Positions 1 through 38,309 of a stretch of 64,000 nucleotides of DNA are shown here, one piece after another. Every line of letters begins with the position of its first letter. Position 1 is the first letter of the stretch. Below the pieces are notes generated by a model. It saw only the letters and a list, made by a program, of their open reading frames with translations. It had not been told where the DNA came from and did no database searches. The stretch is taken from positions 984-64,983 of the forward strand of contig JAGUZN010000220.1 in assembly GCA_020060775.1 (NCBI GenBank), in the 5' to 3' direction. The position numbers and the translations under genes were made by a program. Source of the DNA: Armatimonadota bacterium. GTDB lineage: Bacteria; Armatimonadota; Hebobacteria; CAIYQO01.

Positions 1-2
1 AC

Positions 3-101
3 CAGGTAAGTCAGGTCGTAACCGAGTTCCAACGCTTCCTTGAGGGGCAACTCACAACAGATGACCCGGATGCATTGCCGGTGCTGCAGATCGAGAGGTA
101 A
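3..101 (+). CDS. 3' end of an upstream gene cut by the window edge (product unknown)
   Basis: Frame is open from the window edge (..QRFLEGQLTTDDPDALPVLQIER*) to TAA 99-101, 5 nt before the next ATG. No motif recognised. Confidence 0.3.
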   Translation, partial: QVSQVVTEFQRFLEGQLTTDDPDALPVLQIER

Positions 102-106
102 CTCGG

Positions 107-3016
107 ATGATTCAAGCCTGGGTCTTTTCAAAACTGGAACCAGTCAAAGATGACCCGATGGTGGTCGTGCGTGACCCGTTGGGATTGACGGAAGGCATGG
201 AGAACGCATTACATGCCTGGGGTAAAACACACACCTACGCTGTGATCCCTTGTGCGACTAACCTGCTCTTCCGATATAAATATGAAGAAGCACGGGCGGA
301 TGAAACCATTAAGAAAATACTCATCCTTGATCGTACTCCTTTGAGTCGGCGCACACGTCCTGATTATCATCGAGCAGCGGCGCCGTTCTATCCAGATATA
401 TTGGCGCAAACGCGCCCCGAGGCGTGTATCGAACTGGATCTGCGGCAGTTCTTGCGTGAACAAACAAACGATGCGTATTGGCCACAGGAAGTGAATGAGC
501 CACGCCTGGCCCGCCTGCTCATGAAATATCTCGATGGAGCTCTGCGTGCCCATGAGAATCTACGGGCGGCAAGCCCTGATCGTTTCACCGACCAGGATTT
601 AAAAACGATCATCGCTTTTGCGGCTCTCGGTGTACCGGAAGCTGCTTTTAAGAATCTTTCCGCCAGTGAGTATTGGAAGATCGGTCTGCGTGGTCATCAT
701 GAATTGCGCGGGTTGGAGCAGCTCATGCCTGAGATCACCGAGACGATCACCGGCAAACTGAAGAAGGCACCAGCCCCGTTCTGTTGGCTTGCTGATAAAT
801 ATGACCCAGACACGGTGATCCGGGCTTTTTACCTTTCCGTTGTGTTGGCACAGCATGTGACGCACTGGCAAACGCTGCCGGCGAATGTTGATCCGATCTT
901 TGGGCGTATGGGCGGCATCGCCCCCGAGACCTTGCAGGATGCTGCCCCCAAGCTGGTGAGCCTTGATCCGGCACGAGCGCAAAGCGACATTCGCGCGATG
1001 GAAGATAAGTTGACCGTTAAGAATTTGCATTTTCTGCTACTCGAACAGATGCAAATTGAGGCACGGTTCGCTGAGGTGATCGAGAAAGAGCAATACTCGG
1101 AATTATTCCGTTCCCTCTCGCTCATTCTCGCCCTTGATAATCTCTGCTCAACACACCCGACCCAGGAAGCGCAAAAGCGGGTGAGTGAGGCGTTACTGGC
1201 TAAACGTTCACAACGCGCGCTGGTTGACCTTCGCCCTTCAGCGACCTGGAAAATATTACGACAGGCATATCTCCGTGCCGTACGACTTCTCGCCTTGCGT
1301 GGGCAACTTGGCAAATTCGTCAAGGAGCTTGACCAATTGCCGGAAACTACGCAGGTGCTCTATCTGGCGCCCGGTCAAGAAAAAACCGTTGCCTTTCATG
1401 TGAAGCCGGATATTTCACTAGCCACCAATAGTGAGAGAGCTTCAGGGGAGATGCCATGGGCACTTCGGGTGTGCCCGGTATGTTATGAGCGTGGCTTAAT
1501 AGAAGAAATTAGTACGCGATCTGAAAAATTCGGATCGATCCCCGTCTTGGTTAGTTACATATGCGAAAACGGTTGCCAACCACAGAGTGGCGAACGCCTA
1601 CACAACGATCCAGATGACAAAAAGAGAGAGTATTTTAAGAAATATGATGTCGGTAAATTGGCCGAGATAGAAGAAATGGAAATACCATATTGGTATCCGA
1701 GAAATCGCATGATGAATGCCCCTGAAGATCAGGAATGTTGGGGAGTAAAATGGCGCGCTGGAACTAGTAACTTTCGAACTGTCGACGAGTTGTTTACAAA
1801 ACGAAATTTGTGGGCTCTCGCTGTACTCTTCAATGCAGCTTCTCAAGAGCAGACCAGCGATGTGCTTAGGTTTAGACTGGAAGCCATTTTACTAAATTTG
1901 TCTCGTATGCAAGGTAACACTACTGATCCTCGCTTCCCCAATAACATTATTCGAGGGACTTATTATACACCTCAAATTATGCGTGAATACTCAGTTTTGC
2001 CGTGGTATGCCGGTAAGATACGAAATCTAATTGATGGTTATTCTAAATTATACCCTTCATACCAGGGCTTTGGAGAGGTTTGCATTTCTACACAATCTGC
2101 ATGTTCAATGGATGCCATTCCAGATAATTCACTTGATTACATATTCACTGATCCACCGTATGGGGACAAGGTTCAGTATGGAGAACTCAACTTTGTATGG
2201 GAATCATGGATGGGGTGGAATACACTTTGGCATGATGATGAGATCATAATTAATGACGTCCGGGGCAAGACCGAGCTTGATTGGTCTGAAATGATGGAGT
2301 GTGTAATTAAGGAGTGTTACAGAGTCTTAAAGCCTGGTAGATGGCTCACTTTATGCTATCACGACACTTCGGAGGGAACTTGGGCACTTGTCCAGGACCT
2401 GATGAAAAACGCTGGTTTTATAGTGGACGTTTCAGGCAGTACTCTATTTATCGAGACAGAGCAGAAATCGTTCAACCAGCTTACGGCTGATATCGAAGAA
2501 ATGTTCTTTATGGCGCACCGCATCTCAGCGCTAACACACCGGCATCCCAGGAGCCAGATGGCATGCGGTCTCTACTGCATAATGGCAAAAGGCTTGCTGT
2601 ATGGATTGACGCCCGGAGAGGCCTACCGGTTTATGGTCGAACAGGGGCATCGGTGCTACAACGTCACCCCGTTTCAGCAGGAGATGTCCCATTTCGCGCG
2701 CATCCTCTCTGGCGAACTAATCGGTATGCCTATTAACGAGATTGCCTCCAGCGGCTATGTCATACATACGCTGGAGGCCAGTCTGTGGTGCCTGCTCACA
2801 ACAGGCTCATTCGAGGATGCTGTATTGACGGCGGTGAACCTGGGCGACGATACCGATACGACGGGATGCGTTGCCGGCGGGCTTGCTGGCGTGAGTTACG
2901 GAGATCATGCAATTAATGCTACCTGGTTATCAGTTATTGTCCGGTCATCTGATATGCGAGCGCTGTCGCAGCACTTTCTGGCAGTGATACCGCAAGAGAT
3001 CGGTATAGGAGTGTAG
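107..3016 (+). CDS. Mosaic 969-aa protein: unassigned N-terminal region, then a Zn-ribbon/DPPY DNA-methyltransferase module, then the C-terminal half of an ADP-ribosylglycohydrolase
   Basis: Cys ribbon at CPVC (aa 456-459) and CENGC (aa 486-490). Motif IV LDYIFTDPPYGDKVQYGELNFVW has DPPY at aa 682-685, as in N6A/N4C methylases, but I see no FxGxG/DPFxGSG motif I. From aa ~803 (nt ~2510) the sequence becomes ARH-like (ALTHRHP, GDDTDTTGCVAGGLAG). GC falls at ~1400-2490 and rises again after. Confidence 0.6.
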   Translation: MIQAWVFSKLEPVKDDPMVVVRDPLGLTEGMENALHAWGKTHTYAVIPCATNLLFRYKYEEARADETIKKILILDRTPLSRRTRPDYHRAAAPFYPDILAQTRPEACIELDLRQFLREQTNDAYWPQEVNEPRLARLLMKYLDGALRAHENLRAASPDRFTDQDLKTIIAFAALGVPEAAFKNLSASEYWKIGLRGHHELRGLEQLMPEITETITGKLKKAPAPFCWLADKYDPDTVIRAFYLSVVLAQHVTHWQTLPANVDPIFGRMGGIAPETLQDAAPKLVSLDPARAQSDIRAMEDKLTVKNLHFLLLEQMQIEARFAEVIEKEQYSELFRSLSLILALDNLCSTHPTQEAQKRVSEALLAKRSQRALVDLRPSATWKILRQAYLRAVRLLALRGQLGKFVKELDQLPETTQVLYLAPGQEKTVAFHVKPDISLATNSERASGEMPWALRVCPVCYERGLIEEISTRSEKFGSIPVLVSYICENGCQPQSGERLHNDPDDKKREYFKKYDVGKLAEIEEMEIPYWYPRNRMMNAPEDQECWGVKWRAGTSNFRTVDELFTKRNLWALAVLFNAASQEQTSDVLRFRLEAILLNLSRMQGNTTDPRFPNNIIRGTYYTPQIMREYSVLPWYAGKIRNLIDGYSKLYPSYQGFGEVCISTQSACSMDAIPDNSLDYIFTDPPYGDKVQYGELNFVWESWMGWNTLWHDDEIIINDVRGKTELDWSEMMECVIKECYRVLKPGRWLTLCYHDTSEGTWALVQDLMKNAGFIVDVSGSTLFIETEQKSFNQLTADIEEMFFMAHRISALTHRHPRSQMACGLYCIMAKGLLYGLTPGEAYRFMVEQGHRCYNVTPFQQEMSHFARILSGELIGMPINEIASSGYVIHTLEASLWCLLTTGSFEDAVLTAVNLGDDTDTTGCVAGGLAGVSYGDHAINATWLSVIVRSSDMRALSQHFLAVIPQEIGIGV

Positions 3017-3314
3017 GTCTGCCTCCGTTGATGTGGAACACTCATCGCTCTTATAGCGACAGCTTGCCCTTATTTATCCGTAGGGGGACGTCAATATCAA
3101 TTACTCGCGCTCGAAGACACTGCTCTGCATATGGTTGAAGATAGGCACGAATCGGTCATTTAGCTAATCCGACAGGCACTATAAACGACGTATCCATTGA
3201 TATTGCGGAGTCTCACGAAATCATTGCTGGTTTTGGACCTTAGGCGTATACTTGCTCTGTTGGGCAAGTAGCGTTTGGGTGCAAGCCATAGTAATCGGCT
3301 AATGGCGCTATTCT

Positions 3315-4388
3315 TTGAAAGGCGTGGAGCAGACCGTGGCAAAGTTGTTCATGAACGGCCTACAGCTAATTCTATCTTCCGATAGCTTCACTGCATACGA
3401 GGCAGAAATGCCCGAAGATGGTAGCTTGCGGAAACTGCGCGACCGATATGGCGACGGGTGGTTTTTCCATCGTCAAGGTAATAAGGTATATGGTTTTCCA
3501 CAAGTCGATCGTCCTACCATCCCATTTGGCACGTCCGTAGCATTAAAATGCCAAGAAAACCTTTCTATGCTAGCTGCGGTAGTCGGTGATATTATAGGAC
3601 GACGTCGATTCGGAGGCCAGGTATTATTCCGTCATCGTGGTGCGGAGTTCATCAGTAGTACAAAGGAACTCATCAGTGATGTCGCCAAACAAATGCCGGA
3701 TCTTCCCGACATAGTCAAGTTATTCAAAGCTTATCCACGTTTTACTTTAGAGGCAAAAGTCCTTGAGCTACGCGATGGCGATGGTGGGATCGGGTTATTC
3801 GTTACGTTGGGAAGCAGGTGGCGTATCGAAGCACCTCTCCACGATCTGTTGAGTAAAGGTATTGACCTTCAAGGTATGTACGTCGTTCGAAGGTATCCCG
3901 AGAAAGGCCAGCGGAGGCTTGTTGGTAGAATCTCCTGCATTGATAAAGGAACCGTCAAATTGCTAGAGTCATTCGACGGTACGGCTGAGATTGCGTGCGA
4001 CGACGTGTGGCTTGAAGGGAATAGAGAAAATTTTGCCTATTGCTTGAAGCACTTACTGAAGGCGCGTTACCTATCATTTGAGACTAAGCGTAGGGAAATA
4101 GAAGACCAGTTATTGTCGGGGCCTAAATTTCAGACAACGATACAAAGCATTGCACAGTCATTTACAAATAAGCCTCCCATGCAACTCACTCCTGATCTCC
4201 AGTGCATTGTTGGCGATATGATTTCCGTGAAAAATTTCGGCGGATACTGCACTGTGCGTGCCGCTTCTCCAGTGCAATGTTGCTATGATGCTGCACGGAC
4301 GCAACGGATGGAGTATCCCTGGAAAGGGATCGAAAATTTGGTCCGTTTAGTCGTGACACCTTTACAAGAAAATCACCGACGATACTAG
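3315..4388 (+). CDS. Prokaryotic Argonaute, N-terminal half (N/L1/PAZ-like/L2 region), separated from MID-PIWI by a frame change
   Basis: 357-aa ORF ends 2 nt before the MID-PIWI ORF and lies in another frame. Its length fits the N-terminal half of a long pAgo. No motif is readable by eye. Start is uncertain (TTG 3315 or ATG 3351). Confidence 0.55.
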   Translation: MKGVEQTVAKLFMNGLQLILSSDSFTAYEAEMPEDGSLRKLRDRYGDGWFFHRQGNKVYGFPQVDRPTIPFGTSVALKCQENLSMLAAVVGDIIGRRRFGGQVLFRHRGAEFISSTKELISDVAKQMPDLPDIVKLFKAYPRFTLEAKVLELRDGDGGIGLFVTLGSRWRIEAPLHDLLSKGIDLQGMYVVRRYPEKGQRRLVGRISCIDKGTVKLLESFDGTAEIACDDVWLEGNRENFAYCLKHLLKARYLSFETKRREIEDQLLSGPKFQTTIQSIAQSFTNKPPMQLTPDLQCIVGDMISVKNFGGYCTVRAASPVQCCYDAARTQRMEYPWKGIENLVRLVVTPLQENHRRY

Positions 4389-4390
4389 TT

Positions 4391-5605
4391 GTGTTCCCCG
4401 ATAGTGAACAAGGACCTGTTGAACGATTCCTTCGTTCGTTTCGCGACGGGATATCGTCGTCAGCCTTTGCATCTGGCTTTGTCAGGAACTTTTCTCTCGT
4501 CAACTTAAAGATTGAAAAGGTGCGAGTACCCTGGCTGGGGAAAGGGAGTCAGGCTCCTGCGCAAGCGTATAGAAAGGCGATAGATGATTACTTGGCATCC
4601 GCAGATTCGGTGCCAGATGCTGGGATCGTCATTCTCCTAGACGAACATGCCAAACTTCCCGATGCGGTAAACCCGTATCTACATGCTAAATCATCATTGC
4701 TCACGGCAGGTGTCCCGGTCCAGGAACTACGGGTGCCGACTATCAAGCAAGCTGACACATCGCTTTCCTATACCCTGCGTAACATCGCTCTCGCTCTGTA
4801 TGCAAAAATGGGGGGAACCCCATGGACAGTCGACCAGGATATGACGATCAGCGATGAACTGGTGATTGGCATGGGGAGCTGCGCACTCGCAGAGAGCCGT
4901 TTTATAGAGCGTGAAAGATATGTTGGCATCACTACCGTCTTTCGAGGAGATGGCAGCTACCTACTGGGGAACATCTCCAAAGAATGTCCGTACCGTGAAT
5001 ATCCGCAAGTTCTGGAGAGCGAAACTATATCTGTATTGAATGAAATCAAATATCGGAACGGTTGGCGTCCCGGTGATACCGTGCGGATCATATTTCACAC
5101 CTACAAACCATTAAAAAATATCGAGGTAGAAGCGATTGCTGCCAAGTGTGTGCAAGCTATCAGCGGTGAGCAGAATATCGAGTTTGCATTCCTCACGATT
5201 TCTCATGATCACCCTTTTAGACTTTTTGATATCGACCAGCAAGGTATCAAGGGTACGAAAGGCATCTATGTTCCCCAGAGGGGAATTATTATGCAGCTTG
5301 GACGATACACTAGGTTGCTTTGTACAACAGGACCAGAGTTAGTCAAACGTGAAGGATTGCCTTTGCCAGCACCTCTGCTTGTTCATCTGCATCCTGCATC
5401 AACCTACCGTTCATTAGATTACCTAGCTGAACAAGTATTGAAATTTACTGCGCTCTCGTGGCGTTCGACATTGCCTGCGCCGAAACCAGTAACAATCTTT
5501 TACTCTGACCTGATTGCGCAATTCCTGGGTCGCTTACAGCGTATTCCTGATTGGTCTCCGGCAACTCTAAACGCAAAATTACGTGCGAGTCGGTGGTTTC
5601 TATGA
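4391..5605 (+). CDS. Prokaryotic Argonaute MID-PIWI half, predicted catalytically inactive
   Basis: MID-like ILVVFPD strand and NPYLHAKSSLL..VPVQEL (Y-x3-K..Q 5'-end pocket). PIWI hallmarks LRNIALALYAKMGGTPWTV and PVTIFYSDLIAQ. The positions expected for DEDX aspartates read VIGMG and IIFHTYK. This frame is already open from 4289. Confidence 0.8.
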   Translation: MFPDSEQGPVERFLRSFRDGISSSAFASGFVRNFSLVNLKIEKVRVPWLGKGSQAPAQAYRKAIDDYLASADSVPDAGIVILLDEHAKLPDAVNPYLHAKSSLLTAGVPVQELRVPTIKQADTSLSYTLRNIALALYAKMGGTPWTVDQDMTISDELVIGMGSCALAESRFIERERYVGITTVFRGDGSYLLGNISKECPYREYPQVLESETISVLNEIKYRNGWRPGDTVRIIFHTYKPLKNIEVEAIAAKCVQAISGEQNIEFAFLTISHDHPFRLFDIDQQGIKGTKGIYVPQRGIIMQLGRYTRLLCTTGPELVKREGLPLPAPLLVHLHPASTYRSLDYLAEQVLKFTALSWRSTLPAPKPVTIFYSDLIAQFLGRLQRIPDWSPATLNAKLRASRWFL

Positions 5606-6843
5606 CGACGTATTTGTCAGGAGTATATGCTCAGCAACTTAGTACCCTAGCGACACATATCGCTGATGATGCAGTGTGGCCATCTCCGTACGCCGGGTTT
5701 CTTTACTATCTGTGTAACAAATACGATCAGCAGTTTCTGGCACCTTTGATTAACCCTTCACCGCCATGTGTTGAGCTCGGGCGGCTTTACGAGGCACCGA
5801 TTCTTGCATCAGCAGGATATTTATTCGCGCTTAACCATCCTGTAGTTCGTGCAAGTTCCGAAGCTTGGCATATTGGGTTTCAACGGCTTGCTGGGCGCGA
5901 TCCCTTCCCAATTGACCGCCAGTCATTCGTATATCGTCCAATAGAACTGCTTGGTATTACACTTGGAGTGAAGCACTGCCCTAATACTACGCAGGCAGAG
6001 ATTGATTGGCTTATAAATGTGCTACAGAGTGCTGAAAGCCGGCTGAAGAGTGCGTCCTGTTGGCAGTACCTGCTTGGTATGTATGCTTCACGACTACTGG
6101 GTAATTCCTGGGCAAAGCGTTCCTGGGATATTGGGCAATTCCCTGTGGATGACTTGAGCATCGTGGTATGGCTGTGCGCCAATACTCCTGATTTAGCGTT
6201 TGAATTCGGTGTAGACCAATTATACAAGCAAGCAGAGGAATCATTACTGACCCAGTGTGCAAAAACGGAGGTTACCATCCCAGATCCCGCACGTGCTGCA
6301 ATACTCTACTCTAGTCTTGACCGAGCTGTGAGCCGGAGTATTGAATCAGAGCACGAGCGCAATTGGCAAATAGGCCGTGATCAAGCCGATGCCCTCTCAA
6401 TCGTTATCACGTTATGCCGTAGATTTGATTTGTGTGTAAGGCAACTCCAACGTAGGCAGCGAAGTCGCAATCCTTTCACTGTACAAGATGAGTATGATGT
6501 CCAAGACCTGATGCATGCTTTGTTGAAGTTACACTTTGATGATGTTCGTCCCGAGGAGTGGACACCGTCATATGCTGGCAACGCATCACGCGTCGATTTT
6601 TTGCTTAAACGAGAGATGATCGTTGTTGAGGTAAAGATGACTCGCGATAGCCTAGCTCAACGTGAGCTAGCGGACCAATTAATTATTGATAAAGAGCGGT
6701 ATCGATCACATTCTGACTGCCGTATACTGGTGTGTTTTGTTTATGATCCGGAGCATCGCTGCACGAACCCGGCAGCATTGGAGAATGACCTCAGCGAGCA
6801 GATCGGTCTATTTAGGGTTGAAGCAATCGTCTCACCTGCGTAG
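5602..6843 (+). CDS. pAgo-associated protein with a C-terminal PD-(D/E)xK nuclease-like domain
   Basis: Its ATG overlaps the pAgo stop (ATGA at 5602-5605). The C-terminal ~110 aa read DEYDVQDLMH..RVDFLLKREMIVVEVKMTR, giving an E..D..E-x-K core. The N-terminal ~300 aa are unassigned. Confidence 0.65.
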   Translation: MTTYLSGVYAQQLSTLATHIADDAVWPSPYAGFLYYLCNKYDQQFLAPLINPSPPCVELGRLYEAPILASAGYLFALNHPVVRASSEAWHIGFQRLAGRDPFPIDRQSFVYRPIELLGITLGVKHCPNTTQAEIDWLINVLQSAESRLKSASCWQYLLGMYASRLLGNSWAKRSWDIGQFPVDDLSIVVWLCANTPDLAFEFGVDQLYKQAEESLLTQCAKTEVTIPDPARAAILYSSLDRAVSRSIESEHERNWQIGRDQADALSIVITLCRRFDLCVRQLQRRQRSRNPFTVQDEYDVQDLMHALLKLHFDDVRPEEWTPSYAGNASRVDFLLKREMIVVEVKMTRDSLAQRELADQLIIDKERYRSHSDCRILVCFVYDPEHRCTNPAALENDLSEQIGLFRVEAIVSPA

Positions 6844-7290
6844 GTCTGCGGAGCAATGTTATGCAAATGCAATTCGTCGTACATCCGAGAACGTATGAGA
6901 TCAACGGCTATTTCTTTCAAGTGCTGTCATGTTGCGCGTTGACTGATGGGCAGGCAGCTAATGCTGCCATGCATTTTTATCAAACACATAAGCTAAAGAA
7001 GAAAGACAAAGGAAAATTAATTAAAGTCATAACGAGCCCTGATACGGATACTGCAGGAATCTTTGGGTAGCACGGCTACCTATGACTACAGATACGCCAA
7101 CCTAAGTTATGCAACGTGATCTGAAGGAAGCATTCAGCAGTATTACCAGGTTACTCCTACATGAGCGTGAGGAGTATTCATTAGGTCGGTCCAAAGACCG
7201 TGCTGATATTTTAAGCGCAGGGTCTCCAATTCCCTCATGGCAGCCCCTGCGACCATTACCTATGTGGATGGTCCTTCACTTATTTGATAC

Positions 7291-8298
7291 TTACAGATCA
7301 AGCAATGATGCCGAATTCTCTTGAAACAACACCCCCATGCGGATATACCGCTGCACCATCACATTCGACCGATGACCGGTCTGCTGCATGATAGATCGCT
7401 CGTTTGCACCTGCACGGGCGGCGGCGGTGCAGTGGCCGGCGCGCAGGGAGTGACCGCTGTAGCGTTTCGGATCAAGGCCGATCTCTTTCACCATCTTCTT
7501 GATGAGATTGGCGACGGCACGATCCGATAAGCGCTCACTGCAGAGTTTGTCATGACGGTTGATGCCGCGGAAGAGGGCGCCGCCGGTAATCCCGCTGGAT
7601 TCCAGCCAGGATTTCAAGGCACGCACTGGACAGGTTTCTTCATGAGTGCCAAATGGTATGGCGACCCAACGCCCTTCACCTTCTTGATCTGTTTTTGATC
7701 GGCGGAGGCAGATAACGACTCCTTCCTCCCTGAAGGTCAGGTCGGCGACATCAAAGGCGACCAACTCGGAGCGCCGGAAGGCGCCAGCGTATCCCAGGAG
7801 TAGCAGTGCGCGGTCCCGCCGGCCTTTCAATGTCTCTGGTAATACCGCCATGATGCGTCTCATGTCATCGGTCATCAAGGCATCGACCTGGCGGGCGGTG
7901 ACGCCGATCCGCCGGCGAATGCCGCGCATGACGGCCCGCACGGCGGCGTGTTGGGTGGGGGAGGGGTGGCCAGCGTGTTGGTGGATGGCGCTGATGGCGG
8001 CCATATAGCGCGAGAGCGTGCTGTACTTGTGGTCGGTCGTCGCCATCGCCGTCATGTAGCAGGCAATCGTCTCAGGGCTGGCCGGCATCGACGGCAAGTG
8101 GTATTGTTCGCACCAGGCCACGAACTGCTGCCAATCCCGCTCGTAGGCCTCCCGCGTGTGTTGCGAGATACCTTCCTCGATGAACTCCTGGACTTGCTCG
8201 ATCAGTGGAACGAGAAGGGTGTGATCGGGGTGCTGGTTGGCACTGGGCCCGATCCGGGCAGGCAGTGATGCTGGCTGGGTGATGGGAGCCTGATCCAT
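7291..8298 (-). CDS. Tyrosine recombinase / phage-type integrase (XerC/D-like)
   Basis: N-terminal SAM-like domain (TREAYERDWQQFVAWC). C-terminal catalytic signature RRSELVAF..HSLRAGHCT..TGHRSNVMVQRYIR (R..HxxR..H..Y). Confidence 0.85.
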   Translation of the reverse strand: MDQAPITQPASLPARIGPSANQHPDHTLLVPLIEQVQEFIEEGISQHTREAYERDWQQFVAWCEQYHLPSMPASPETIACYMTAMATTDHKYSTLSRYMAAISAIHQHAGHPSPTQHAAVRAVMRGIRRRIGVTARQVDALMTDDMRRIMAVLPETLKGRRDRALLLLGYAGAFRRSELVAFDVADLTFREEGVVICLRRSKTDQEGEGRWVAIPFGTHEETCPVRALKSWLESSGITGGALFRGINRHDKLCSERLSDRAVANLIKKMVKEIGLDPKRYSGHSLRAGHCTAAARAGANERSIMQQTGHRSNVMVQRYIRMGVLFQENSASLLDL

Positions 8299-22504: not shown

Positions 22505-22589
22505 GGTTGGCGCCTGCTATAGAGAACTATTGCCAATATGAGGAACCGGTATTGAGCCCGCTTGTGATGGCGATTGCTCGAGCCAAACG

Positions 22590-22769
22590 TTGACACCTGC
22601 CGCTTGCCTCACTATACTGCGCATATGCTGTTCATTAATCCGGTCATCGAACATACCTTCCGTCTGTACGCGTGGGCTCCATAGCCGTCGTGCCGGGATG
22701 TATTGTATTCGCTTTCTCACCCCTCCCGGTACTCGGGAGGGGTTTTCGCTTTACCAGGAGGGCAACGCC
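22590..22769 (+). promoter_or_regulatory. Leader cassette X2: consensus promoter, leaderless 19-codon uORF and intrinsic terminator upstream of a methyltransferase gene
   Basis: TTGACA 22590-22595, 17-nt spacer, TATACT 22613-22618. uORF 22625-22684 encodes MLFINPVIEHTFRLYAWAP*. Terminator at 22720-22752. Paralogous to 8965-9144. Confidence 0.6.
22720..22752 (+). terminator. Rho-independent terminator / attenuator hairpin
   Basis: CCCCTCCCG-GTACT-CGGGAGGGG forms a 9-bp stem, followed by TTTTCGCTTT. Confidence 0.7.
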
Positions 22770-23606
22770 ATGGCAACCATAAAATATGATCCCCAATGGG
22801 TGCGTGACTTCTACGATGCCTACGGCATGCAGGAGTGGGAACGGTTTGACCGTCATCCCATGCTGCGCATCGCCTTCGCCATCCATCAGCACTACCTGCG
22901 GCAGTATCTGCAGCCGGGACAGCATATATTGGAGATCGGCGCGGGCGCCGGGCGCTTTACCCAGGTGCTGGCAGAGATGGGCATGCGGGTGACCGTGGCC
23001 GATATCTCACCGATCCAATTGGCGTTGAACCGGCAGCAGGCCGACACGCATGGCTTTGCGTCGGCAGTTGACCAGTGGGTCGAGTGTGATGCCTGCGATC
23101 TGCGCGGACAGTTTGCCGACAAGGCTTTCGACGCGGTGGTCGCCTATGGCGGCCTGCTCAGCTACGTCTTCGATCAGGCCGGCTTGGTGCTGACCGAGTT
23201 GCAGCGCGTGGTGATGCCGGGTGGTCCCATCTTTCTGGAAGTAATGAGCCTGTGGGGGGCGATCCATTGCTATCTGCCGCCGGTGTTGTCCATCGACCCG
23301 GCGGTGAACCGCCAGATCGTCGCCCGCGGTGATCTGGACCGGGAGTTGGCGATTTCCACGCACTATTGCCACATGTATCGTGCCAAGGAGTTCCGGCAAC
23401 TGATTGAGGAGTGCGGACTGACCATCGAGGTCATGAGCGCCAGCAATGCGCTCTCCACCAACTGGGAAGAGCAACTTCGCACCATCCATGAAGACAGCCC
23501 TGCCTGGCAGCACCTGCTGGAAATGGAACTGGAAGCCTGCCGCGAGCCGGGGTGTCTGGACATGGGCACGCATTTGATTGCGGTGTGCCGGAGGAGCACG
23601 ACATGA
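22770..23606 (+). CDS. Class I SAM-dependent methyltransferase
   Basis: Motif I is ILEIGAGAGRFTQVLAEMGMRVTVADIS. Start is ATG 22770 after CAGGAGGG. Confidence 0.75.
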   Translation: MATIKYDPQWVRDFYDAYGMQEWERFDRHPMLRIAFAIHQHYLRQYLQPGQHILEIGAGAGRFTQVLAEMGMRVTVADISPIQLALNRQQADTHGFASAVDQWVECDACDLRGQFADKAFDAVVAYGGLLSYVFDQAGLVLTELQRVVMPGGPIFLEVMSLWGAIHCYLPPVLSIDPAVNRQIVARGDLDRELAISTHYCHMYRAKEFRQLIEECGLTIEVMSASNALSTNWEEQLRTIHEDSPAWQHLLEMELEACREPGCLDMGTHLIAVCRRSTT

Positions 23607-24025: not shown

Positions 24026-24931
24026 ATGCCAGAAGGCAGGGTCGTAATGAAAGAGATGAAGACGTTACACTGCCAACATTGGTCCTCGCGTGCGCGCCTC
24101 GACGCTCTCCTCCAGCGGCTCATCGCCTGCTTGCCAGGAGTGCCGGGCTTTCGGACCTTGTCGCTCTTCGGCTCGGTGGCGGAAGGGCGGGCCGACGGCT
24201 ACTCGGATATCGATATGATCCTGACCACCGACGATTTGCCGGCGGCGCAGCATGCCGTGCTTGATGTGTTGGAAGCGGGTGTCGGGCCGGTGGAGAGTTG
24301 CTGGGCCATCGCGCTGCGCCCGGATGAGTGGAATCCGACGATCATCTTCTCGGAGGAGGGCTATTACCACAAGCTCGACCTCGGGCTGGTGGCATCGACC
24401 GCCGTCACCCCTACTATCCCACCGGAGCAAACCACCGTGTTGGTGACACAACCGGTGGGGCATCAACGCGCTTCGGCACCGGAGAGCACGGCCTATCTGC
24501 CGCCATACGGCTCGGTCGGACATTTCTTGCTCGGGCAATTGCTTGGCGGCAACCGCTATTGTAAAGCGCGCAAGCGCGGGCAGCCGCTCACCTGCTACCG
24601 CTTCGTCTCCGCCGCGGCGGACTGGTGCCTGCGTGCCCTGCATGTGCGCTTAACTGGCAAAGTAATGTGGCAGGGCAAGCTGTCCACGGAGGAATACGCC
24701 GTCCTGGGTGGCCTTGATACCGGTGGCCGGGGCCGCACCATCCTCGCCGCCTTGGACTACTCGACCCCGGAGAAGATGGATCAGTCGCTCTGCGGCATCT
24801 TCCGGCACCTGTACGAACTCTGCGGGGAGATATCTGCCATGCAGAGCGAAGTATTACCGGTCGGCATGTTCGAGCGCATGCTGGATTTTATGAGGACTGA
24901 GTTGGACATTGCAGAAGGACACCAACCATGA
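24026..24931 (+). CDS. Nucleotidyltransferase-domain protein
   Basis: LSLFGSVAEGRADGYSDIDMILTTDD matches the GS..DxD motif. Start could instead be ATG 24047. Confidence 0.6.
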   Translation: MPEGRVVMKEMKTLHCQHWSSRARLDALLQRLIACLPGVPGFRTLSLFGSVAEGRADGYSDIDMILTTDDLPAAQHAVLDVLEAGVGPVESCWAIALRPDEWNPTIIFSEEGYYHKLDLGLVASTAVTPTIPPEQTTVLVTQPVGHQRASAPESTAYLPPYGSVGHFLLGQLLGGNRYCKARKRGQPLTCYRFVSAAADWCLRALHVRLTGKVMWQGKLSTEEYAVLGGLDTGGRGRTILAALDYSTPEKMDQSLCGIFRHLYELCGEISAMQSEVLPVGMFERMLDFMRTELDIAEGHQP

Positions 24932-25749
24932 CGAATGTCGCCGACTTCTACACCCAGGGTGCCGCCCGTGAATGGGAACGTCTGGAGCAGGCACCGTATC
25001 AGCACCTGGAATTCCAGGTGACCCTGCACTTCCTGCGCAAGCACCTGCCGCCGGAGGGCGTGATCCTCGACGCCGGTGGCGGGCCGGGGCGGTATGCGCT
25101 GGCGCTTAGCCGCGAAGGGCGTGAGGTTGTGCTGTGCGACCTGGCGCCGGGCAATATCGCCCTGGCACGGGAGCAGTTCACTGGGGAACCTGAAGCGGTG
25201 CGTGCCCGGCTGCGCGAGGCACAGGTGGCGGATATTCGTGCCCTACCGTATGCGGACAGCACGTATACCGCCGTGCTCTGCCTGGGTGGGCCGCTGTCGC
25301 ATCTGCCTGATCCAATGGATCGCGAGCAGGCGGTGCGGGAACTGGTGCGCGTGGCCGCGCCCGGCGGGCTGGTGGTGCTGACCGGCATCGGCGCCCTGGC
25401 GGTGTTGCGCACCATCATCATGATCTGTCCGCACGAACTGGTCGACGGCTCGCTGGACACCTTTTCCAATGACGGCAACTCCCCCGGCCCAGGCGGCATG
25501 CTCTGGCACTGGTTCCGTGCGGCAGAGTTGCGAGAACTGGCGGAGTCGGCCGGTTTGACCACCCTGGAGATGGCCGGCTGCCAGGGACTCTCCACCGGCC
25601 TGGAGGAGGCAACAAACCGACTCGCGGCGAACGAAGAGCAATGGCAGCGCTGGCTCGATATCCTGCTGGCCACCGCCACCGAGCCGCCGGTGGTCGATAT
25701 GGCGGAGCATCTGCTGTATGTTGGGCGCAAGGAGGGGATACGTGAATGA
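24928..25749 (+). CDS. Class I SAM-dependent methyltransferase
   Basis: VILDAGGGPGRYALALSREGREVVLCDLAPGNI. ATGA overlap with the upstream gene. Confidence 0.75.
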   Translation: MTNVADFYTQGAAREWERLEQAPYQHLEFQVTLHFLRKHLPPEGVILDAGGGPGRYALALSREGREVVLCDLAPGNIALAREQFTGEPEAVRARLREAQVADIRALPYADSTYTAVLCLGGPLSHLPDPMDREQAVRELVRVAAPGGLVVLTGIGALAVLRTIIMICPHELVDGSLDTFSNDGNSPGPGGMLWHWFRAAELRELAESAGLTTLEMAGCQGLSTGLEEATNRLAANEEQWQRWLDILLATATEPPVVDMAEHLLYVGRKEGIRE

Positions 25750-26573
25750 CGCACCAGCAGACCCCGACGATGCTTCGCGCAGCCATGGTCAGTTATCCTG
25801 TCGCTCTCGGTGATGTCGATGCCAATCGGCGGGTGATTGAGACGACATTGGCCGCGCATGATGGCATCGACCTGTTCGTCTTCCCCGAACTCTGCCTGTG
25901 CGGAAACCTGCCGCCAACCATTGAGGCGATGAGCCGTGTTGCTGAGGCCGTGCCAGCCGGACCATCCGCCCAGCACATGATCGCACTGGCACAACGCTAT
26001 CAGACCGTGCTCTGTGCCGGTATTATCGAGGTGGAGGACGGTGCGTATTATGCCACGCACTTCCTCTGTGGGCCACAGGGCTATCTCGGGAAGCAACGGA
26101 AACTGTTTCCCTCGCGCGGGGTGCCGCATACCGGAGATCTCTCCGGCGGGCGAAATGTCACCCAGATAGAGCTCTTTGGCGTGGGGTGTGCTATCCTCGC
26201 CTGTGCAGACTGGATGCTGCCGGAAGGGCCTTACCTGGCGAGTCTACAGGACGTGGCACTCATCCTTGCCCCGACAGACAGGTATGAATCATCACGGATG
26301 GACCTGCTCTGCCAAATCGGTCAGGCGCGGGTATTCGACAGTCACGCCTGCCTGGCTGTCGCCTTCGGGCGTGACGCGTCCTGTCACGACGACGCGCCCA
26401 CTGGTCTGGTCGTCCATGCGGATAGCACCGTACAGATGGAAGCCTGTGCCGACTCCGCTGTGCAGGTCATGGTATCCGAGTTGTGCCTTCAGCCTCCCCT
26501 GCACCGGTGGGGGAGGCCTGTTGATCGGGTGACGACCGTTTGGGAGGTTATAGGAGGATCACATGATCGATGA
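25746..26573 (+). CDS. Carbon-nitrogen hydrolase (nitrilase-superfamily) protein
   Basis: An E-K-C triad can be assigned from FVFPELCLCG (E), GKQRKLFP (K) and AILACADW (C). ATGA overlap with the upstream gene. Confidence 0.65.
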   Translation: MTHQQTPTMLRAAMVSYPVALGDVDANRRVIETTLAAHDGIDLFVFPELCLCGNLPPTIEAMSRVAEAVPAGPSAQHMIALAQRYQTVLCAGIIEVEDGAYYATHFLCGPQGYLGKQRKLFPSRGVPHTGDLSGGRNVTQIELFGVGCAILACADWMLPEGPYLASLQDVALILAPTDRYESSRMDLLCQIGQARVFDSHACLAVAFGRDASCHDDAPTGLVVHADSTVQMEACADSAVQVMVSELCLQPPLHRWGRPVDRVTTVWEVIGGSHDR

Positions 26574-27351
26574 CATCGCTGCCGTGAACCGCGAACGCTG
26601 GAATGCCATGGCCAGCGCCAAGGTGATGTTCTCACGACCGTTCTTCGACTTCACCCGAGAAGAGGCGGCTGCCTACATCCACTGCGATACCATGCTCGGT
26701 GATGTGGCAGGCAAAGACGTGCTGTGCCTGGCGAGTGGGGGCGGACAGGATTCGGCGGCGTTCGGTTTGCTGGGGGCCAGTGTCACGGTATTCGATCTGT
26801 CCGACGTGCAATTGTCTCGTGATCAGGATGCCGCCCGATCTCATGGCTACACGGTGCAGACCGTGCAAGGCGACATGCGCGACCTGTCCGCCTTCACAGC
26901 GAACACCTTCGACATTGTCTGGCAGCCCTATTCCATCAATTACAGCCCGACGGTCGAGCCGGTGATCGCCGAAGTGGCCCGCGTGCTGAAGCCCGGCGGC
27001 ATCTATCACCTGGCCTTCGCCAATCCGTTCGCGCTGGCGATGGACAACGGTTGGGACGGTAACGGCTATCCCCTGCGCGACCTGTATCGAGACGGCGAGG
27101 ACATTACACGGTTCTTCCCCATCTGGGAACTGGAGCAGGAGGACGGTACGGTTGTGACCGTCGAGCGCCCGCACGAATTCCGCCATACGCTGAGCACCAT
27201 GTTCAATACGCTCGCCCGGCAGGGGTTCCAGTTCATGCAGATGTCAGAATGGGTGCGTCCGGATATCGACCCGGAGCAGGGCTCCTGGGCCCATTTCACC
27301 CAGTGTTGCCCGCCGTATCTGCAGACGTTCTGGCGGTGGGGTGGTTCGTAA
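26563..27351 (+). CDS. Class I SAM-dependent methyltransferase
   Basis: VLCLASGGGQDSAAFGLLGASVTVFDLSDVQL and VLKPGGIYHL. Overlaps the upstream gene by 11 nt. Confidence 0.75.
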   Translation: MIDDIAAVNRERWNAMASAKVMFSRPFFDFTREEAAAYIHCDTMLGDVAGKDVLCLASGGGQDSAAFGLLGASVTVFDLSDVQLSRDQDAARSHGYTVQTVQGDMRDLSAFTANTFDIVWQPYSINYSPTVEPVIAEVARVLKPGGIYHLAFANPFALAMDNGWDGNGYPLRDLYRDGEDITRFFPIWELEQEDGTVVTVERPHEFRHTLSTMFNTLARQGFQFMQMSEWVRPDIDPEQGSWAHFTQCCPPYLQTFWRWGGS

Positions 27352-29088: not shown

Positions 29089-29201
29089 CATGCCTGGAGG
29101 ATGAATATCGCGCCAGCGCCGGAGTCGGCGATTACACGGGGTGATGATGTGTTATTTTTTCTCGATATGGCGGAGTGCAACAAGCAGCGGGGAGATCAGC
29201 A

Positions 29202-30008
29202 GTGACCGAACATATCAACGCCAACATCGACCGCTTCAGCGGCTTTGCCGATTGCTATGACCGGTATCGCCCGCAGCCGCCGGCGGTGATTCCGGAGATC
29301 CTCGCGCAACTGCTGGGTGATCCGATGCCGACGCTGGTGGTCGACCTGGGCAGCGGCACGGGGCTCTCGACGCGCATCTGGGCCGGCAAGGCGCGGGAGG
29401 TGATCGGCATTGAGCCGAATGCTGACATGCGCCGGGTGGCGAAGGCGCAGACGCCGCCGGATGCCGGCATCCGGTACCAAAATGGCCTCTCGACGCAGAT
29501 GCACGTGCCGGATGCGAGCGCCGACATCATCTGCTGCTCGCAGGCCTTCCACTGGATGGCGCCGGAACCCACCCTCGCCGAAGTGGCGCGCGTGCTGCAT
29601 CCAGGTGGGGTATTCGCCGCCATCGACTGCGATTGGCCGCCGACGCTGCATTGGCAGGCGGAACAGGCTTATCGCGCCCTGATGCACCAGGTGGGCATGC
29701 TTGAGCACCAGCACGGCATCTACCACACGGTGAAGAAGTGGCCGAAAGATCGCCACCTCGCCAATATCCAGGCCAGCGGCCATTTCCGGTATACGAACGA
29801 AGTGATCGTTCATCATGTCGAGTCCGGCAATACCGACCGCCTCATCGGCCTGGCACTCAGTCAGGGAGGGGTAGAAGGCTTGCTGAAGCTTGGCCTGACA
29901 GAAGAGGAGATCGGCCTGACCGCCTTCCGCGCTACGGTGTATGCCTTGTTAGGCGACACCCCCTGTCCCTGGTATTTCGGGTACCGTGTGCGGTTAGGGG
30001 TGAGGTAG
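29202..30008 (+). CDS. Class I SAM-dependent methyltransferase
   Basis: LVVDLGSGTGLSTRIWAGKAREVIGIEPNADM. I chose the start at GTG 29202, 7 nt after GGGGAG. The ORF is open from 29175. Confidence 0.7.
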   Translation: MTEHINANIDRFSGFADCYDRYRPQPPAVIPEILAQLLGDPMPTLVVDLGSGTGLSTRIWAGKAREVIGIEPNADMRRVAKAQTPPDAGIRYQNGLSTQMHVPDASADIICCSQAFHWMAPEPTLAEVARVLHPGGVFAAIDCDWPPTLHWQAEQAYRALMHQVGMLEHQHGIYHTVKKWPKDRHLANIQASGHFRYTNEVIVHHVESGNTDRLIGLALSQGGVEGLLKLGLTEEEIGLTAFRATVYALLGDTPCPWYFGYRVRLGVR

Positions 30009-30307
30009 AGATATCTGGCATGTTGAATCAGGCAGACGATAATCGAAGAGTGACGCTCGGAAATTTTCATCGCTACGGCCACTTCCCACGCCGTCAAGTG
30101 ACCGCGTGATTCACGCAGGAGTACGATAGTGATGAGACGGTAGCCATGTCGTGATATCCCAGGTGGCAGGGATACAATATATGTGCGGTATCGTGCACTT
30201 AACAGAAATTGAGCTCGTCTTGCCAACTCTCATGTCTCTATTGACAGATTGAGCTGCATGATGCAATATCATATGCGAAAGTCCCCGCTACACTGGGTTA
30301 TTTGCAT

Positions 30308-31093
30308 ATGAGAGTGTCAACTGCAAGTGAATATGTGCGCACACTCCTCCAACGTGGCCGCTATACCTTCAGCCGCGATGAAGCCGAAGCCGCGCTGGGG
30401 AGTCCGCGTGCGACGATGAAGGCGTTACACCGGCTCGAAAACCAGGGATGGCTGGTCTCACCGAGCCAGTGCTTCTACGTCATCCAGGACCCCCTGCATC
30501 AAGTTGCCGGGTTACCTGTCGAATGGTTCCTGGATGATTGGGCGCGACACCTCGGCGTGAAGTATTATGTCGGACTGCTCACCGCGGCGATGTATCATGG
30601 CGCCGCCCATCAAAAGCCGCAGCAGTTTCAGGTGATCGTCGACCGGCAACTCAGACCGGTGGTTCGCGGTCCGTATCATATTCACTTCTTTTATAAGAAG
30701 CGCATTGCTGATGCCGCCTGGGAGACGCGGCAGTCACCTGCCGGCTACTACCGGATCAGCACCCCGGAAATGACCGCCTACGATCTCCTGCGGTATCCGA
30801 AGGCGTGCCCGACCCGTGATATGGCGGCCACCATCCTTGCGGAACTCGGCGAGATGATCCTGGACGACCGTTTGGCAGATCTCCTGGAGCAGGAAGCAGA
30901 GATTGCCACCCTCCAACGGCTGGGGTGGATGCTGGATGCGGTCGGCTGGTCAGCGAAGACCGAGGCGTTGGCCAGTGCATTACACTCCCATCGTCGGCTC
31001 TGGCAACCCTTGCGGCCTGATCTTCCAGCCGATGGCCCTCGCGACCCACGCTGGCGCATCATCGTGAATGAAACGATTGAGGTTGAGATATGA
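30308..31093 (+). CDS. abiEi: AbiEi-family antitoxin / transcriptional regulator (type IV TA, abortive infection)
   Basis: Sits immediately upstream of, and overlaps by ATGA, an AbiEii-type nucleotidyltransferase. The N-terminal winged-helix-like RTLLQRGRYTFSRDEAEAALG and the size (~260 aa) fit AbiEi. Confidence 0.6.
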   Translation: MRVSTASEYVRTLLQRGRYTFSRDEAEAALGSPRATMKALHRLENQGWLVSPSQCFYVIQDPLHQVAGLPVEWFLDDWARHLGVKYYVGLLTAAMYHGAAHQKPQQFQVIVDRQLRPVVRGPYHIHFFYKKRIADAAWETRQSPAGYYRISTPEMTAYDLLRYPKACPTRDMAATILAELGEMILDDRLADLLEQEAEIATLQRLGWMLDAVGWSAKTEALASALHSHRRLWQPLRPDLPADGPRDPRWRIIVNETIEVEI

Positions 31094-31917
31094 TCCCCGA
31101 GGCATTTCTCGCCGAGTGGCGAGTCACCAGCGCACCATGGCAGCAACTGGCCATGGTCGAACAGGACCTGGTCATCAGCCGGGCACTCCTGAATATCTAC
31201 GACGATGACTACCTCCGGGACCGATTGGCCTTTCGTGGAGGGACCGCGCTCTACAAGCTCTACCTGGTGCCGCCGGCACGGTATTCCGAAGACATTGATC
31301 TGGTGCAAATCAACGCCGAGCCCATTCGCGAGACCGTCGTTCACCTGCAAGCGGCACTCGACCCCTGGCTGGGGCAGCCGCGGTATACCGCAACCGCACA
31401 ATCGGTCAAACTGCTCTATCGCTTCGCGGCAGAAGCGACGCCAGGTCTGCAGCAGCGCCTGAAGATCGAGATCAATACGCGGGAGCACCTTCCGGCATTT
31501 GGCTTGGTCAATAGACCGTTCACTGTGCAATCCCGATGGGTCGACGGCACGGTTATGATCCCCACTTATGCCATCGATGAACTACTGGGCACGAAGCTGC
31601 GCGCGCTCTATCAACGCAAGAAAGGCCGTGATCTCTTTGACGTGGATTATGCCATGCGGCAAGGGGAGGTCGATGGGCAACGGGTGCTCACAGCCTTCAT
31701 GCATTATGTGTCTCGGCAGGGATTGCGCATCACCACCGGGCAGTACCAGGCCAACCTGCGGGAGAAGATGACGGACCCCCGGTTCGGCGCCGACATTGCC
31801 CCACTGCTGCGTGATGGGATTGCCTTCTCACTCGATGAGGCATTAGCCCGAGTGGAGGAGCAGTTCCTGCGTCACCTTGACGCCGCCTGGTCACAGGTGG
31901 CGGAGCCTGTCCCGTAA
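31090..31917 (+). CDS. abiEii: AbiEii/AbiGii-family nucleotidyltransferase toxin (DUF1814)
   Basis: LAFRGGTALYKLYLVPPARYSEDIDLV (GG-T-x-L .. S-E-D-I-D NTase core) and KLRALYQRKKGRDLFD. Confidence 0.8.
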   Translation: MIPEAFLAEWRVTSAPWQQLAMVEQDLVISRALLNIYDDDYLRDRLAFRGGTALYKLYLVPPARYSEDIDLVQINAEPIRETVVHLQAALDPWLGQPRYTATAQSVKLLYRFAAEATPGLQQRLKIEINTREHLPAFGLVNRPFTVQSRWVDGTVMIPTYAIDELLGTKLRALYQRKKGRDLFDVDYAMRQGEVDGQRVLTAFMHYVSRQGLRITTGQYQANLREKMTDPRFGADIAPLLRDGIAFSLDEALARVEEQFLRHLDAAWSQVAEPVP

Positions 31918-31919
31918 GA

Positions 31920-32830
31920 TCAGCAGCCATGTTGTTGCTGGTAACAGCCACTTAACGGAAGCCAGCCATTAACACCACTGGGATCGAGCACGAAGGCGAC
32001 CGCGTCGGTGCTGGTAAATACCCAGAGCCACCAGCGCAATTTCGTCTTGTCGTTGAAGTGGAGCCACCACGTTTCATCCGCGTGCCAGTGGTCGGCCATA
32101 CGCAGATGGAGGAGGGTGGCATCATAGAGCGACGGAGCAGCGCGCCGACGGTGTCTTGCACCCTGAAGAGTGTGCTGGAGGCGAAGCGCACGCCGCAACA
32201 CAGGGTCAGTGCGTACAGTTAGCGGTAGACGGTTGGCCGTGGAGGAATTTGTTGACGACCAGGTGCGCAATGGCGCCGGTTCGGGATGAGTTTCGGCGGC
32301 GCAAGCGCGGGCAATTGCACCGTGGAGCCCGGCAGGTGGTACTTTCGCCGCATATGGATGACGCGCCGTATCCTGGCCTCCCCGTTTGAGGTTGGTGGCG
32401 TCTTTCGTGCCAGCGGTGGTGAGTAGTACTTCCCAAAGATGGGGCATTGGCGTGCCTCCTCGGGGAGGTTATGGAGCACCTCGCTGGGCGGCAACTATTG
32501 GTAGAGCCGACAGCCATGGCCGGGAGTGCCGTGCCGTTGCCCGCTCTGACCATGCGGCGCGTCGGTGGGCGCATCAGCCGACGGGATTGGCTGGAGTCGG
32601 GGGCGTCTGCGGCGGCACCGCGGAGGCTCTGCTCGGATTTTCGCCAAACAGCATCGTCTATTATTGCGGATGAGGGCATATTGCTTGGCGACCATCTCGC
32701 GCAAGGCGGCGTTGTCGGAGAGCAACTGTTCGACGGTCTCCTGCAGCGAGACGACGGTGGTCTCCAGCGTCTGGAGGCGCGCCAGCAGGGACGCGATGTC
32801 ATAGGCGGTGGGTGCAATGGACATTCCTCT
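31920..32830 (-). pseudogene. Decayed, 3'-truncated IS66-family transposase
   Basis: IS66 landmarks are spread over three minus-strand frames. These are an N-terminal coiled coil (LQTLETTVVSLQETVEQLLSDNAALREMV), a WRKSEQ box, the zinc-finger region LPEEARQCPIFGKYY..RRKYHLP, and HADETWW..WLWVF (first DDE Asp). The sequence ends before the rest of the DDE domain. Confidence 0.65.
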
Positions 32831-33335: not shown

Positions 33336-33659
33336 CTCGGTTTGGTAAGGTTGGACCCTGTTACGTTATTGAGCTCGAATGCTTACCTGTAGACCAAGGG
33401 CACGTCCTTGCTCAACAGGCTGCTAGGCACCAGCACGGTCTGTTCAATATGCGCACGGGTAATCGTCCCCTTGGAGAAGTGACGGTATACCCATGCGCGC
33501 TTTTCATTCCCGCTCGGTCAGGTGAGTCACGGCGTCCAGCCGGCCCGGCACTATATGGGGGAGCCGAGCCTTATGGCTTATAATCGGTTGTGGACGTGGC
33601 AATGAGAATACGATCAGTACCGATACCACTATTTTGGGGGAAGGAAGGAATCCGCTGCT

Positions 33660-35342: not shown

Positions 35343-35384
35343 TTAATGGTATATAAGTGATCATCAGATTGGAGTGACCAAGCG

Positions 35385-37932: not shown

Positions 37933-38309
37933 CCGTGGGCAATTCCATCATCGCCTGGGCAATATAGACACTTTTTTCTGAATTAGGTGACAGTATGGGC
38001 AAACTGAAGTGTTCTCAGGAGGCGCGTTTTTTCTTCCGGCATTTTGCCCGGCGTCGTCGCATCTCCTCATAATCGGGTAACGCGTATGCCGGTTCTTCCC
38101 CCTGTGCCCTGGCAGCTTTAGCGACTTGGCACCTGAGTACCCCACGTGCGAAGATATCGACGAGTTCCGCCAGGCGGGCCTCGGGGGTCATCTTGGTCGG
38201 GTCGATGGTGGTATTGAACATGGGACACACCCCTTTCATGAACGTATGACGGACAATACCTCAACATCGGCTGACATGGGAAGGGGATGGCGGAAGATTG
38301 TTTTTGAGG

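Follow-up and report, generated by a model that had tools for sequence, protein, structure and literature searches.

RsAgo is the archetypal long-B Argonaute of prokaryotes. BPAN systems consist of a long-B prokaryotic Argonaute (pAgo) and a bAgaN nuclease carrying a D-EVK motif, both encoded in the same operon (Song et al., 2023, PMC10620215). Here we analyse a locus of this kind in a stretch of 64,000 nucleotides from an Armatimonadota bacterium (assembly GCA_020060775.1, contig JAGUZN010000220.1, positions 984 to 64,983; hereafter the window, in whose coordinates all positions are given). In it, a long-B pAgo gene is distributed over two reading frames that meet at A_AAT_TTG, a heptamer resembling a -1 slippery site. 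A first-pass annotation of the window had proposed that ribosomes slip there, while granting that a single-base indel would explain the arrangement equally well. Our analysis leads to the conclusion that the locus belongs to the known long-B pAgo/BPAN family and is disrupted by a frameshift, and that the recoding reading is unsupported. The frame break is probably the result of a recent and genuine deletion of one nucleotide, a reading to which we assign a probability of roughly 60%.

An RsAgo-like gene in two frames

The upstream open reading frame (ORF), in frame 0, extends from 3315 to 4388 on the forward strand and ends with a TAG at 4386-4388. The -1 frame contains a TGA at 4286-4288 and is then open from 4289 to a TGA at 5603-5605, with an overlap of 100 nt between the two frames. 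Within this overlap frame 0 reads GAA AAT TTG (4332-4340), in which A_AAT_TTG at 4334-4340 fits the pattern X_XXY_YYZ. All these positions agree with those given in the first-pass annotation, which was also right in recognizing a pAgo with its MID-PIWI half, as attested by Pfam Piwi, by the PADLOC profile pAgo_II and by the alignment with RsAgo. Three start codons can be considered for the upstream ORF, TTG 3315, GTG 3336 (with GGAG 5 nt upstream) and ATG 3351; either of the latter two is likelier than TTG 3315 to be the pAgo start, although the true start is left uncertain. The elements of the operon are the following:

3336 to 4340, forward strand: N-terminal half of the long-B Argonaute gene (N-L1-PAZ-L2 lobe), in frame 0; covers pAgo_II positions 2-314 and aligns with RsAgo residues 23 to ~349 and with 24 homologues
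4334 to 4340, forward strand: frame-break site, an A4T3 run read A_AAT_TTG in frame 0; putative scar of a 1-nt deletion
4341 to 4388, forward strand: out-of-frame tail of the upstream ORF, VRLVVTPLQENHRRY followed by the stop codon TAG 4386-4388
4340 to 5605, forward strand: C-terminal half of this Argonaute gene (MID-PIWI lobe), read in the -1 frame; matches Pfam Piwi PF02171 (E=5e-17) and pAgo_II positions 314-724
5602 to 6843, forward strand: intact pAgo-associated PD-(D/E)XK nuclease, bAgaN-like (helical plus DpnII/MboI-type REase domain), by Pfam and PADLOC

The two ORFs share a single family profile between them. Residues 12-341 of the upstream ORF match positions 2-314 of PADLOC pAgo_II (PDLC02379, 724 positions; E=6e-45), and the -1 frame matches positions 314-724 (E=5e-167) from residue 16 counted from 4289. 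Both profile boundaries fall on nucleotides 4334-4337, and the two ORFs are therefore halves of one gene, with the switch of frame at the heptamer. The out-of-frame tail shows no homology to the pAgo family, the match of the N-terminal ORF to a family hidden Markov model (HMM) stopping at residue 334 of 350. When the frames are joined, they encode a protein of 756 aa whose residues 4-756 align with residues 23-778 of RsAgo (5AWH/6D8P, E=3e-201), and which also aligns with EcAgo of the E. coli BPAN system (23wq, E=5e-83); the alignments with RsAgo 5AWH and EcAgo 23wq are ungapped across the junction. The long-B architecture N-L1-PAZ-L2-MID-PIWI is thus complete once the halves are united, with pAgo_II positions 2-724 covered. 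The PIWI domain would be inactive, lacking the catalytic DEDX tetrad, if one judges only from the close homology to RsAgo.

The nuclease gene that follows is undamaged. Its product matches Pfam PF18742 DpnII-MboI (E=2e-51, profile positions 3-149 of 150) and PADLOC Aga_Helical-REase PDLC02411 (E=1.7e-74, positions 5-374 of 378), and its translation displays the D...EVK motif (VDFLL...VVEVK). The pAgo stop TGA (5603-5605) overlaps the nuclease start ATG (5602-5604) as ATGA, which would imply translational coupling of sensor and effector; under such coupling, a frame break upstream would also lower translation of the nuclease. By its predicted gene content and order, the locus is a BPAN-type defence operon, with an RsAgo-like long-B pAgo followed by a PD-(D/E)XK nuclease. 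Of the features that define BPAN, a downstream D-EVK nuclease in the same operon is present and an intact pAgo ORF is absent, the reading being broken at 4334-4340 and leading to the TAG at 4386-4388.

Intact relatives and the slippery heptamer

The homologues of the joined pAgo compared here are all continuous at this position. A protein search with the joined sequence found 203 homologues, the best 120 of which, with identities of 45-56%, were listed and compared. All 120 are single long proteins, 119 of them with 737-797 aa and 96-100% coverage of the query, and the remaining one with 587 aa and 76% coverage. This search missed the 404-aa C-terminal half of the window's own gene, which is present in the collection, and absence from it is weak evidence. 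Scans of representative genomes and metagenomes added 33 homologous DNA loci, 29 of which contain the conserved site W.G(I/L)..(Y/F)GPFS. A single frame is open across the site in 29/29, and 0/29 have an X_XXY_YYZ heptamer at the position of the break. Single-ORF orthologues devoid of the heptamer are precisely what the first-pass annotation had said would speak against slippage.

The sequences themselves indicate what is missing. A typical homologue reads GGA ATT GAG AAA TAT GGG CCT TTT, or GAG AAA TAC GGG in its central part, and one of the intact loci, L023, reads GGC ATC GAA AAA TTC GGC CCA TTC where the window reads GGG ATC GAA AA- TTT GGT CCG TTT. The family consensus GIE(K/N)FGPFSR is recovered with one more A in the A-run (EKF) or one more T in the T-run (ENF). 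The indel in the AAAA/TTT run that had been mentioned as an alternative thus finds support in the intact relatives, in L023 and in the recovery of the consensus. The -1 frame encodes K-F-GPFSRD, with the aromatic Phe that is typical of the family directly before GPFSR: in 117 homologues, the residue preceding GPF is Y in 62, F in 47, H in 6, W in 1, R in 1 and L in 0, and the residue before that is K in 31, R in 27, N in 21 and others in the rest. An HMM built from 24 intact homologues gives 1110.2 bits to the protein with EKF, 1109.2 to that with ENF and 1105.7 to the ENL expected from a tandem slip. The junction peptide of the first-pass annotation, ..GIE-KFGPF.., is accordingly the translation of the -1 frame, that is, of the repaired gene, but not the product of the canonical tandem slip for which it had been offered, which would be ..GIE-N-L-GPF... 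A slip in the P site only would give ENF, and this argument from the product therefore excludes the tandem-slip model only.

Under programmed -1 ribosomal frameshifting, some ribosomes would slip at A_AAT_TTG and make full-length pAgo, which might hold an abortive-infection sensor at a low level. Indeed, an in-frame X_XXY_YYZ stands exactly at the 0/-1 junction, a position where chance alone would place one in ~1% of cases, both halves are intact and devoid of any signal of relaxed selection, and a P-site-only slip of tRNA-Asn would produce ENF-GPF at nearly the score of the repaired gene (1109.2 versus 1110.2 bits). But neither the split nor a heptamer at the site is conserved (0/29 loci for both, and 0/120 listed proteins for the split, none of these being more than 55% identical at full length), and a tandem slip would set before GPF a Leu that 0/117 homologues have there. 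Nor are stimulators apparent: the downstream sequence folds no better than its dinucleotide shuffles (z = +0.15 for 60 nt, -0.66 for 100 nt), in keeping with the earlier remark that no convincing hairpin is found downstream. Shine-Dalgarno-like sequences located 10-14 nt upstream stimulate -1 shifts, as in dnaX and IS911. Here, GGAG (4310-4313) lies 20 nt upstream and AAGGGA (4324-4329) 4 nt upstream, neither of them at that spacing.

By the standards of E. coli, the heptamer would also be of a poor kind. In that species, codons of the heterogeneous ZZN type, UUG among them, shift less well, U_UUG as a tetramer gives only 1.8-3.6 times the background even with the IS3 pseudoknot, and motifs without stimulators reach at most ~10 times a background of ~0.055% (PMC4066793). 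The UUG in the A site falls in this poor class, by E. coli rules that may not be those of the host. Besides, two identical A_AAT_TTG heptamers occur in a neighbouring ORF (107-3016) without any change of frame. With single-ORF homologues that lack the heptamer, and with no structure downstream, the programmed slippage proposed in the first-pass annotation appears highly improbable.

Why, then, does a slippery heptamer stand at the break? Of the 15,733 codon positions of the window, 38 have an in-frame X_XXY_YYZ heptamer, and 11 of these 38 are found in four ORFs of the low-GC island to which the operon belongs (~2,950 codons, ~0.4% per codon), including the pair of A_AAT_TTG in ORF 107-3016 and A_AAT_TTT/C in the N-terminal half of the pAgo gene. 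At such a frequency, the chance of finding a heptamer is ~12% anywhere in the 33-codon overlap and ~1% at the junction itself. Its presence there is thus non-random, but can be accounted for equally well by an indel in a homopolymer and by a recoding signal. Homopolymer runs are preferred places for deletions by replication slippage. A codon-aligned XXX YYY preceded by X would become X_XXY_YYZ in the upstream frame upon deletion of one X. AAA TTT after an A turns into A_AAT_TTG on losing one A, so that the motif is expected under the indel explanation. The lesson is general: homopolymer indels create X_XXY_YYZ at the break, and a heptamer at a frame junction is by itself no evidence of recoding.

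In the long-B pAgo family at large, heptamers are, as far as the sequences of homologues tell, incidental. This is illustrated by seven intact homologues (L001 7020, L003 1571, L006 7014, L007 4487, L010 107, L016 4029 and L017 4014), mostly from Nostoc or other Nostocales, which have an in-frame A_AAA_AAA and are single ORFs all the same. In them the heptamer is located 47 nt downstream of the W.G motif, in ..KK.. codons.

Deletion, miscall or functional split

The frame break and its exact position, the single-ORF state of the relatives and the lack of stimulators are observed; that the lesion is a biological one, and of recent date, we infer. The ancestral Argonaute gene would have been one ORF of ~756 codons, from which a single base was lost, either as GAA AAA TTT (A5) becoming GAA AA TTT or, equally, as GAA AAT TTT (T4) becoming GAA AAT TT. 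Ribosomes coming from the true start would leave the frame at 4335-4340 and terminate at the TAG (4386-4388), and unprogrammed slippage would yield at most a trace of full-length pAgo. The deletion would be a very recent inactivating mutation in an island that was already decaying. Two further features of this island bear on the argument:

107 to 3016, forward strand: chimeric ORF of 969 aa made of three gene fragments, with a PglZ-type N-terminus, a DNA methyltransferase middle and an ADP-ribosylglycohydrolase C-terminal half
7291 to 8298, reverse strand: tyrosine recombinase/integrase (Pfam Phage_integrase, E=8e-22, plus SAM-like N-domain), at the edge of the low-GC island

Positions 1-8000 have a GC content of 48-51%, versus 58-66% in most other parts of the window, and the segment from 1 to ~8300, bounded by the integrase, is probably an integrated mobile defence island of horizontal origin. 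No homologue covers more than 47% of the chimeric ORF. Its first 408 residues are 51% identical to residues 1-415 of a PglZ-family protein of 974 aa; residues 341-795 are aligned by BLASTP, with 52% identity overall, to an 844-aa methyltransferase, the well-matched part being ~445-795 against methyltransferase residues ~208-553, with motif I lacking; and residues 795-937 match positions 139-285 of the 287 of the ADP_ribosyl_GH profile. A chimera of three unrelated fragments is beyond what any homopolymer miscall can produce, so that real deletions must have taken place and the island would be decaying. The ORF looks like the remnant of a BREX-like system, and it is odd that two deletion junctions should both have kept one long ORF.

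Alternatively, the organism could have an intact single-ORF pAgo, one base of the A5 (or T4) run having been under-called in the draft contig. We regard this as rather unlikely, though by no means negligible. A change of 1 nt in the length of a homopolymer is the classic context of an indel error; both halves are otherwise flawless and keep all family-invariant residues; the nuclease gene and its coupling to pAgo through ATGA are undamaged; and the sequence is from a 65-kb draft contig (NCBI, JGI/IMG). However, the run at the break has only 4-5 bases, which is short for a systematic homopolymer error, and the decayed state of the adjacent chimeric gene shows that inactivating lesions do occur in the island. 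Moreover, ~45 other ORFs across the 64-kb window were scanned against Pfam without a second frame break being found: among the ~30 with matches, none has a split or an N- or C-terminally cut domain architecture, the uncut ones including LeuRS (843 aa), SMC (1190 aa), a T2SSE ATPase and an IS256/Mutator-family transposase. With no other split gene among these ORFs, the assembly does not seem to be indel-prone.

Several observations weigh against a genuine deletion, or at least do not favour it. Neither half of the pAgo gene has any further lesion, and the joined protein has 3 private deviations at invariant columns, versus 5-10 in comparably isolated intact homologues; with so few deviations, there is no sign of relaxed selection. 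A very recent mutation would be compatible with this, but so, to the same degree, would a sequencing error or a gene that still functions. In addition, the closest pAgo is 55% identical, and the collections searched contain no closer relative that could show the state of the site in sister strains: the genomes and metagenomes scanned contain no relative above 55% identity at full length, or above 58-66% for partial fragments. The source organism is itself isolated, its LeuRS and SMC being singletons at 90% identity. Exact look-ups (NCBI, JGI/IMG) of the C-terminal half, the nuclease, the 969-aa ORF, LeuRS and SMC return a single contig only, and those of the N-terminal ORF under five start codons find no record.

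The two halves could also be functional as they are, the N-PAZ and MID-PIWI lobes being made as separate polypeptides that assemble in the manner of APAZ and a short pAgo. The second half would then be translated by termination and reinitiation at GTG 4391, 2 nt after the TAG, and it is from this GTG that gene callers annotate a 404-aa product (recorded in NCBI and JGI/IMG). Both halves are intact, and the break does fall where homology to short pAgos begins, the short-type PADLOC profile PDLC02436 being matched from its position 31. But a start at GTG 4391, which no Shine-Dalgarno sequence precedes, loses residues 336-352 and leaves HMM positions 334-351 unencoded by the two annotated ORFs. 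The lost segment comprises the invariant GPFSR motif and the first MID strand, with invariant residues G336, P337, F343 and P348 and the nearly invariant F338, S339, R340 and V352. The N-terminal half would in turn end in 16 unrelated residues, and no homologue is split here (120 listed proteins, 29 loci). We thus hold a functional split to be very unlikely. The only in-frame alternative start that keeps the GPFSR motif is, speculatively, CTG 4319-4321, 5 nt after GGAG.

More broadly, the break could be real and tolerated, full-length pAgo being produced in tuned amounts by unassisted slippage on A_AAU_UUG (for example as ENF-GPF), or a two-subunit Argonaute by coupled re-initiation. We give this only a slim chance. 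If true, the locus would represent a long pAgo on its way to a split resembling APAZ plus short pAgo, or a case in which recoding throttles a toxic sensor of abortive infection.

Two other candidates were considered and set aside. RNA-polymerase slippage is known from runs of roughly 8-9 nt. Transcriptional slippage was rejected, A4/T3 being too short, and phase variation was discarded as unlikely, also on account of the short tract.

Surroundings, annotation and known systems

Elsewhere in the window, an intact AbiEi antitoxin/AbiEii nucleotidyltransferase toxin pair (type IV toxin-antitoxin/abortive infection) is located at 30245-31917 on the forward strand. It is preceded, between 22542 and 30008 on the same strand, by four genes for S-adenosylmethionine-dependent methyltransferases (22542-23606, 24901-25749, 26554-27351 and 29148-30008), interspersed with a CN-hydrolase gene and a polysaccharide deacetylase/3-keto-disaccharide hydrolase gene. 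A second low-GC insert (33600-38000, 40-45% GC) contains three ORFs, of which 35385-36842 encodes a sodium:solute symporter and the two others, 33660-35342 and 36766-37932, match no family; none of the three has a PADLOC match. This insert is flanked by a weak IS66-transposase fragment (31920-32447, reverse strand) and an intact Mutator/IS256-family transposase (38418-39638, forward strand). Rfam and tRNA scans of the window gave no matches.

In practical terms, both ORFs call for a single annotation, that of a frameshifted long-B Argonaute gene, either as a pseudogene or, if the reads disagree with the contig, in corrected form. Listing them as a hypothetical protein and a 404-aa "short" Argonaute could inflate the counts of short pAgos in surveys. 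Beyond annotation the importance of the case is small. Were the gene functional despite the break, it would bear on the origin of split (short) Argonautes or on the throttling of toxic defence sensors. A literature search for prokaryotic Argonaute genes with frameshifts, or reduced to pseudogenes, yielded no relevant paper.

The systems to which the locus can be compared are of four kinds. With dnaX (A_AAA_AAG) and the IS3/IS911 elements (A_AAA_AAG or A_AAA_AAA, an upstream Shine-Dalgarno sequence and a downstream hairpin or pseudoknot), it shares an in-frame X_XXY_YYZ in the overlap of two frames. It differs from them by the presumably poor class of its A-site UUG, by the lack of downstream structure and of a suitably spaced Shine-Dalgarno sequence, and by the absence of conservation, and also because here the -1 frame encodes ancestral residues right up to the break.

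Homopolymer-indel pseudogenes, and the leakage described for "savior indels" (Atkins et al., 2016, PMC5009743), offer a parallel, in that there, too, a gene without other damage is broken when a short A/T run changes its length by a single base. Short homopolymer runs are intrinsically slippery, and a low level of translational correction is conceivable. Compared to the "savior indel" cases, the one in the window is indistinguishable from the ordinary homopolymer-indel kind.

The likeness to systems in which a short pAgo is paired with an APAZ effector (SPARTA, SPARSA, SPARDA) is superficial and consists in the two-gene layout, with a gene for an N-terminal lobe followed by one for MID-PIWI. 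Unlike in those systems, the upstream half is here collinear with the N-PAZ lobe of long-B pAgos, and the split is unique and removes conserved residues. The upstream half contains no effector domain detectable with Pfam, and its only PADLOC match is to the N-terminal portion of pAgo_II, a profile of long pAgos.

It is RsAgo (PDB 5AWH, 6D8P) and the BPAN systems, such as EcBPAN, that the locus resembles in its whole organization. No full-length relative found shares more than 55% identity with the joined pAgo, whose ORF differs from those of RsAgo and the BPAN systems in being interrupted, by a frame break of 1 nt, at the start of the MID-PIWI lobe. The resemblance extends over a full-length alignment and includes the nuclease gene downstream in the operon, one being predicted downstream of RsAgo as well (PMC10620215).

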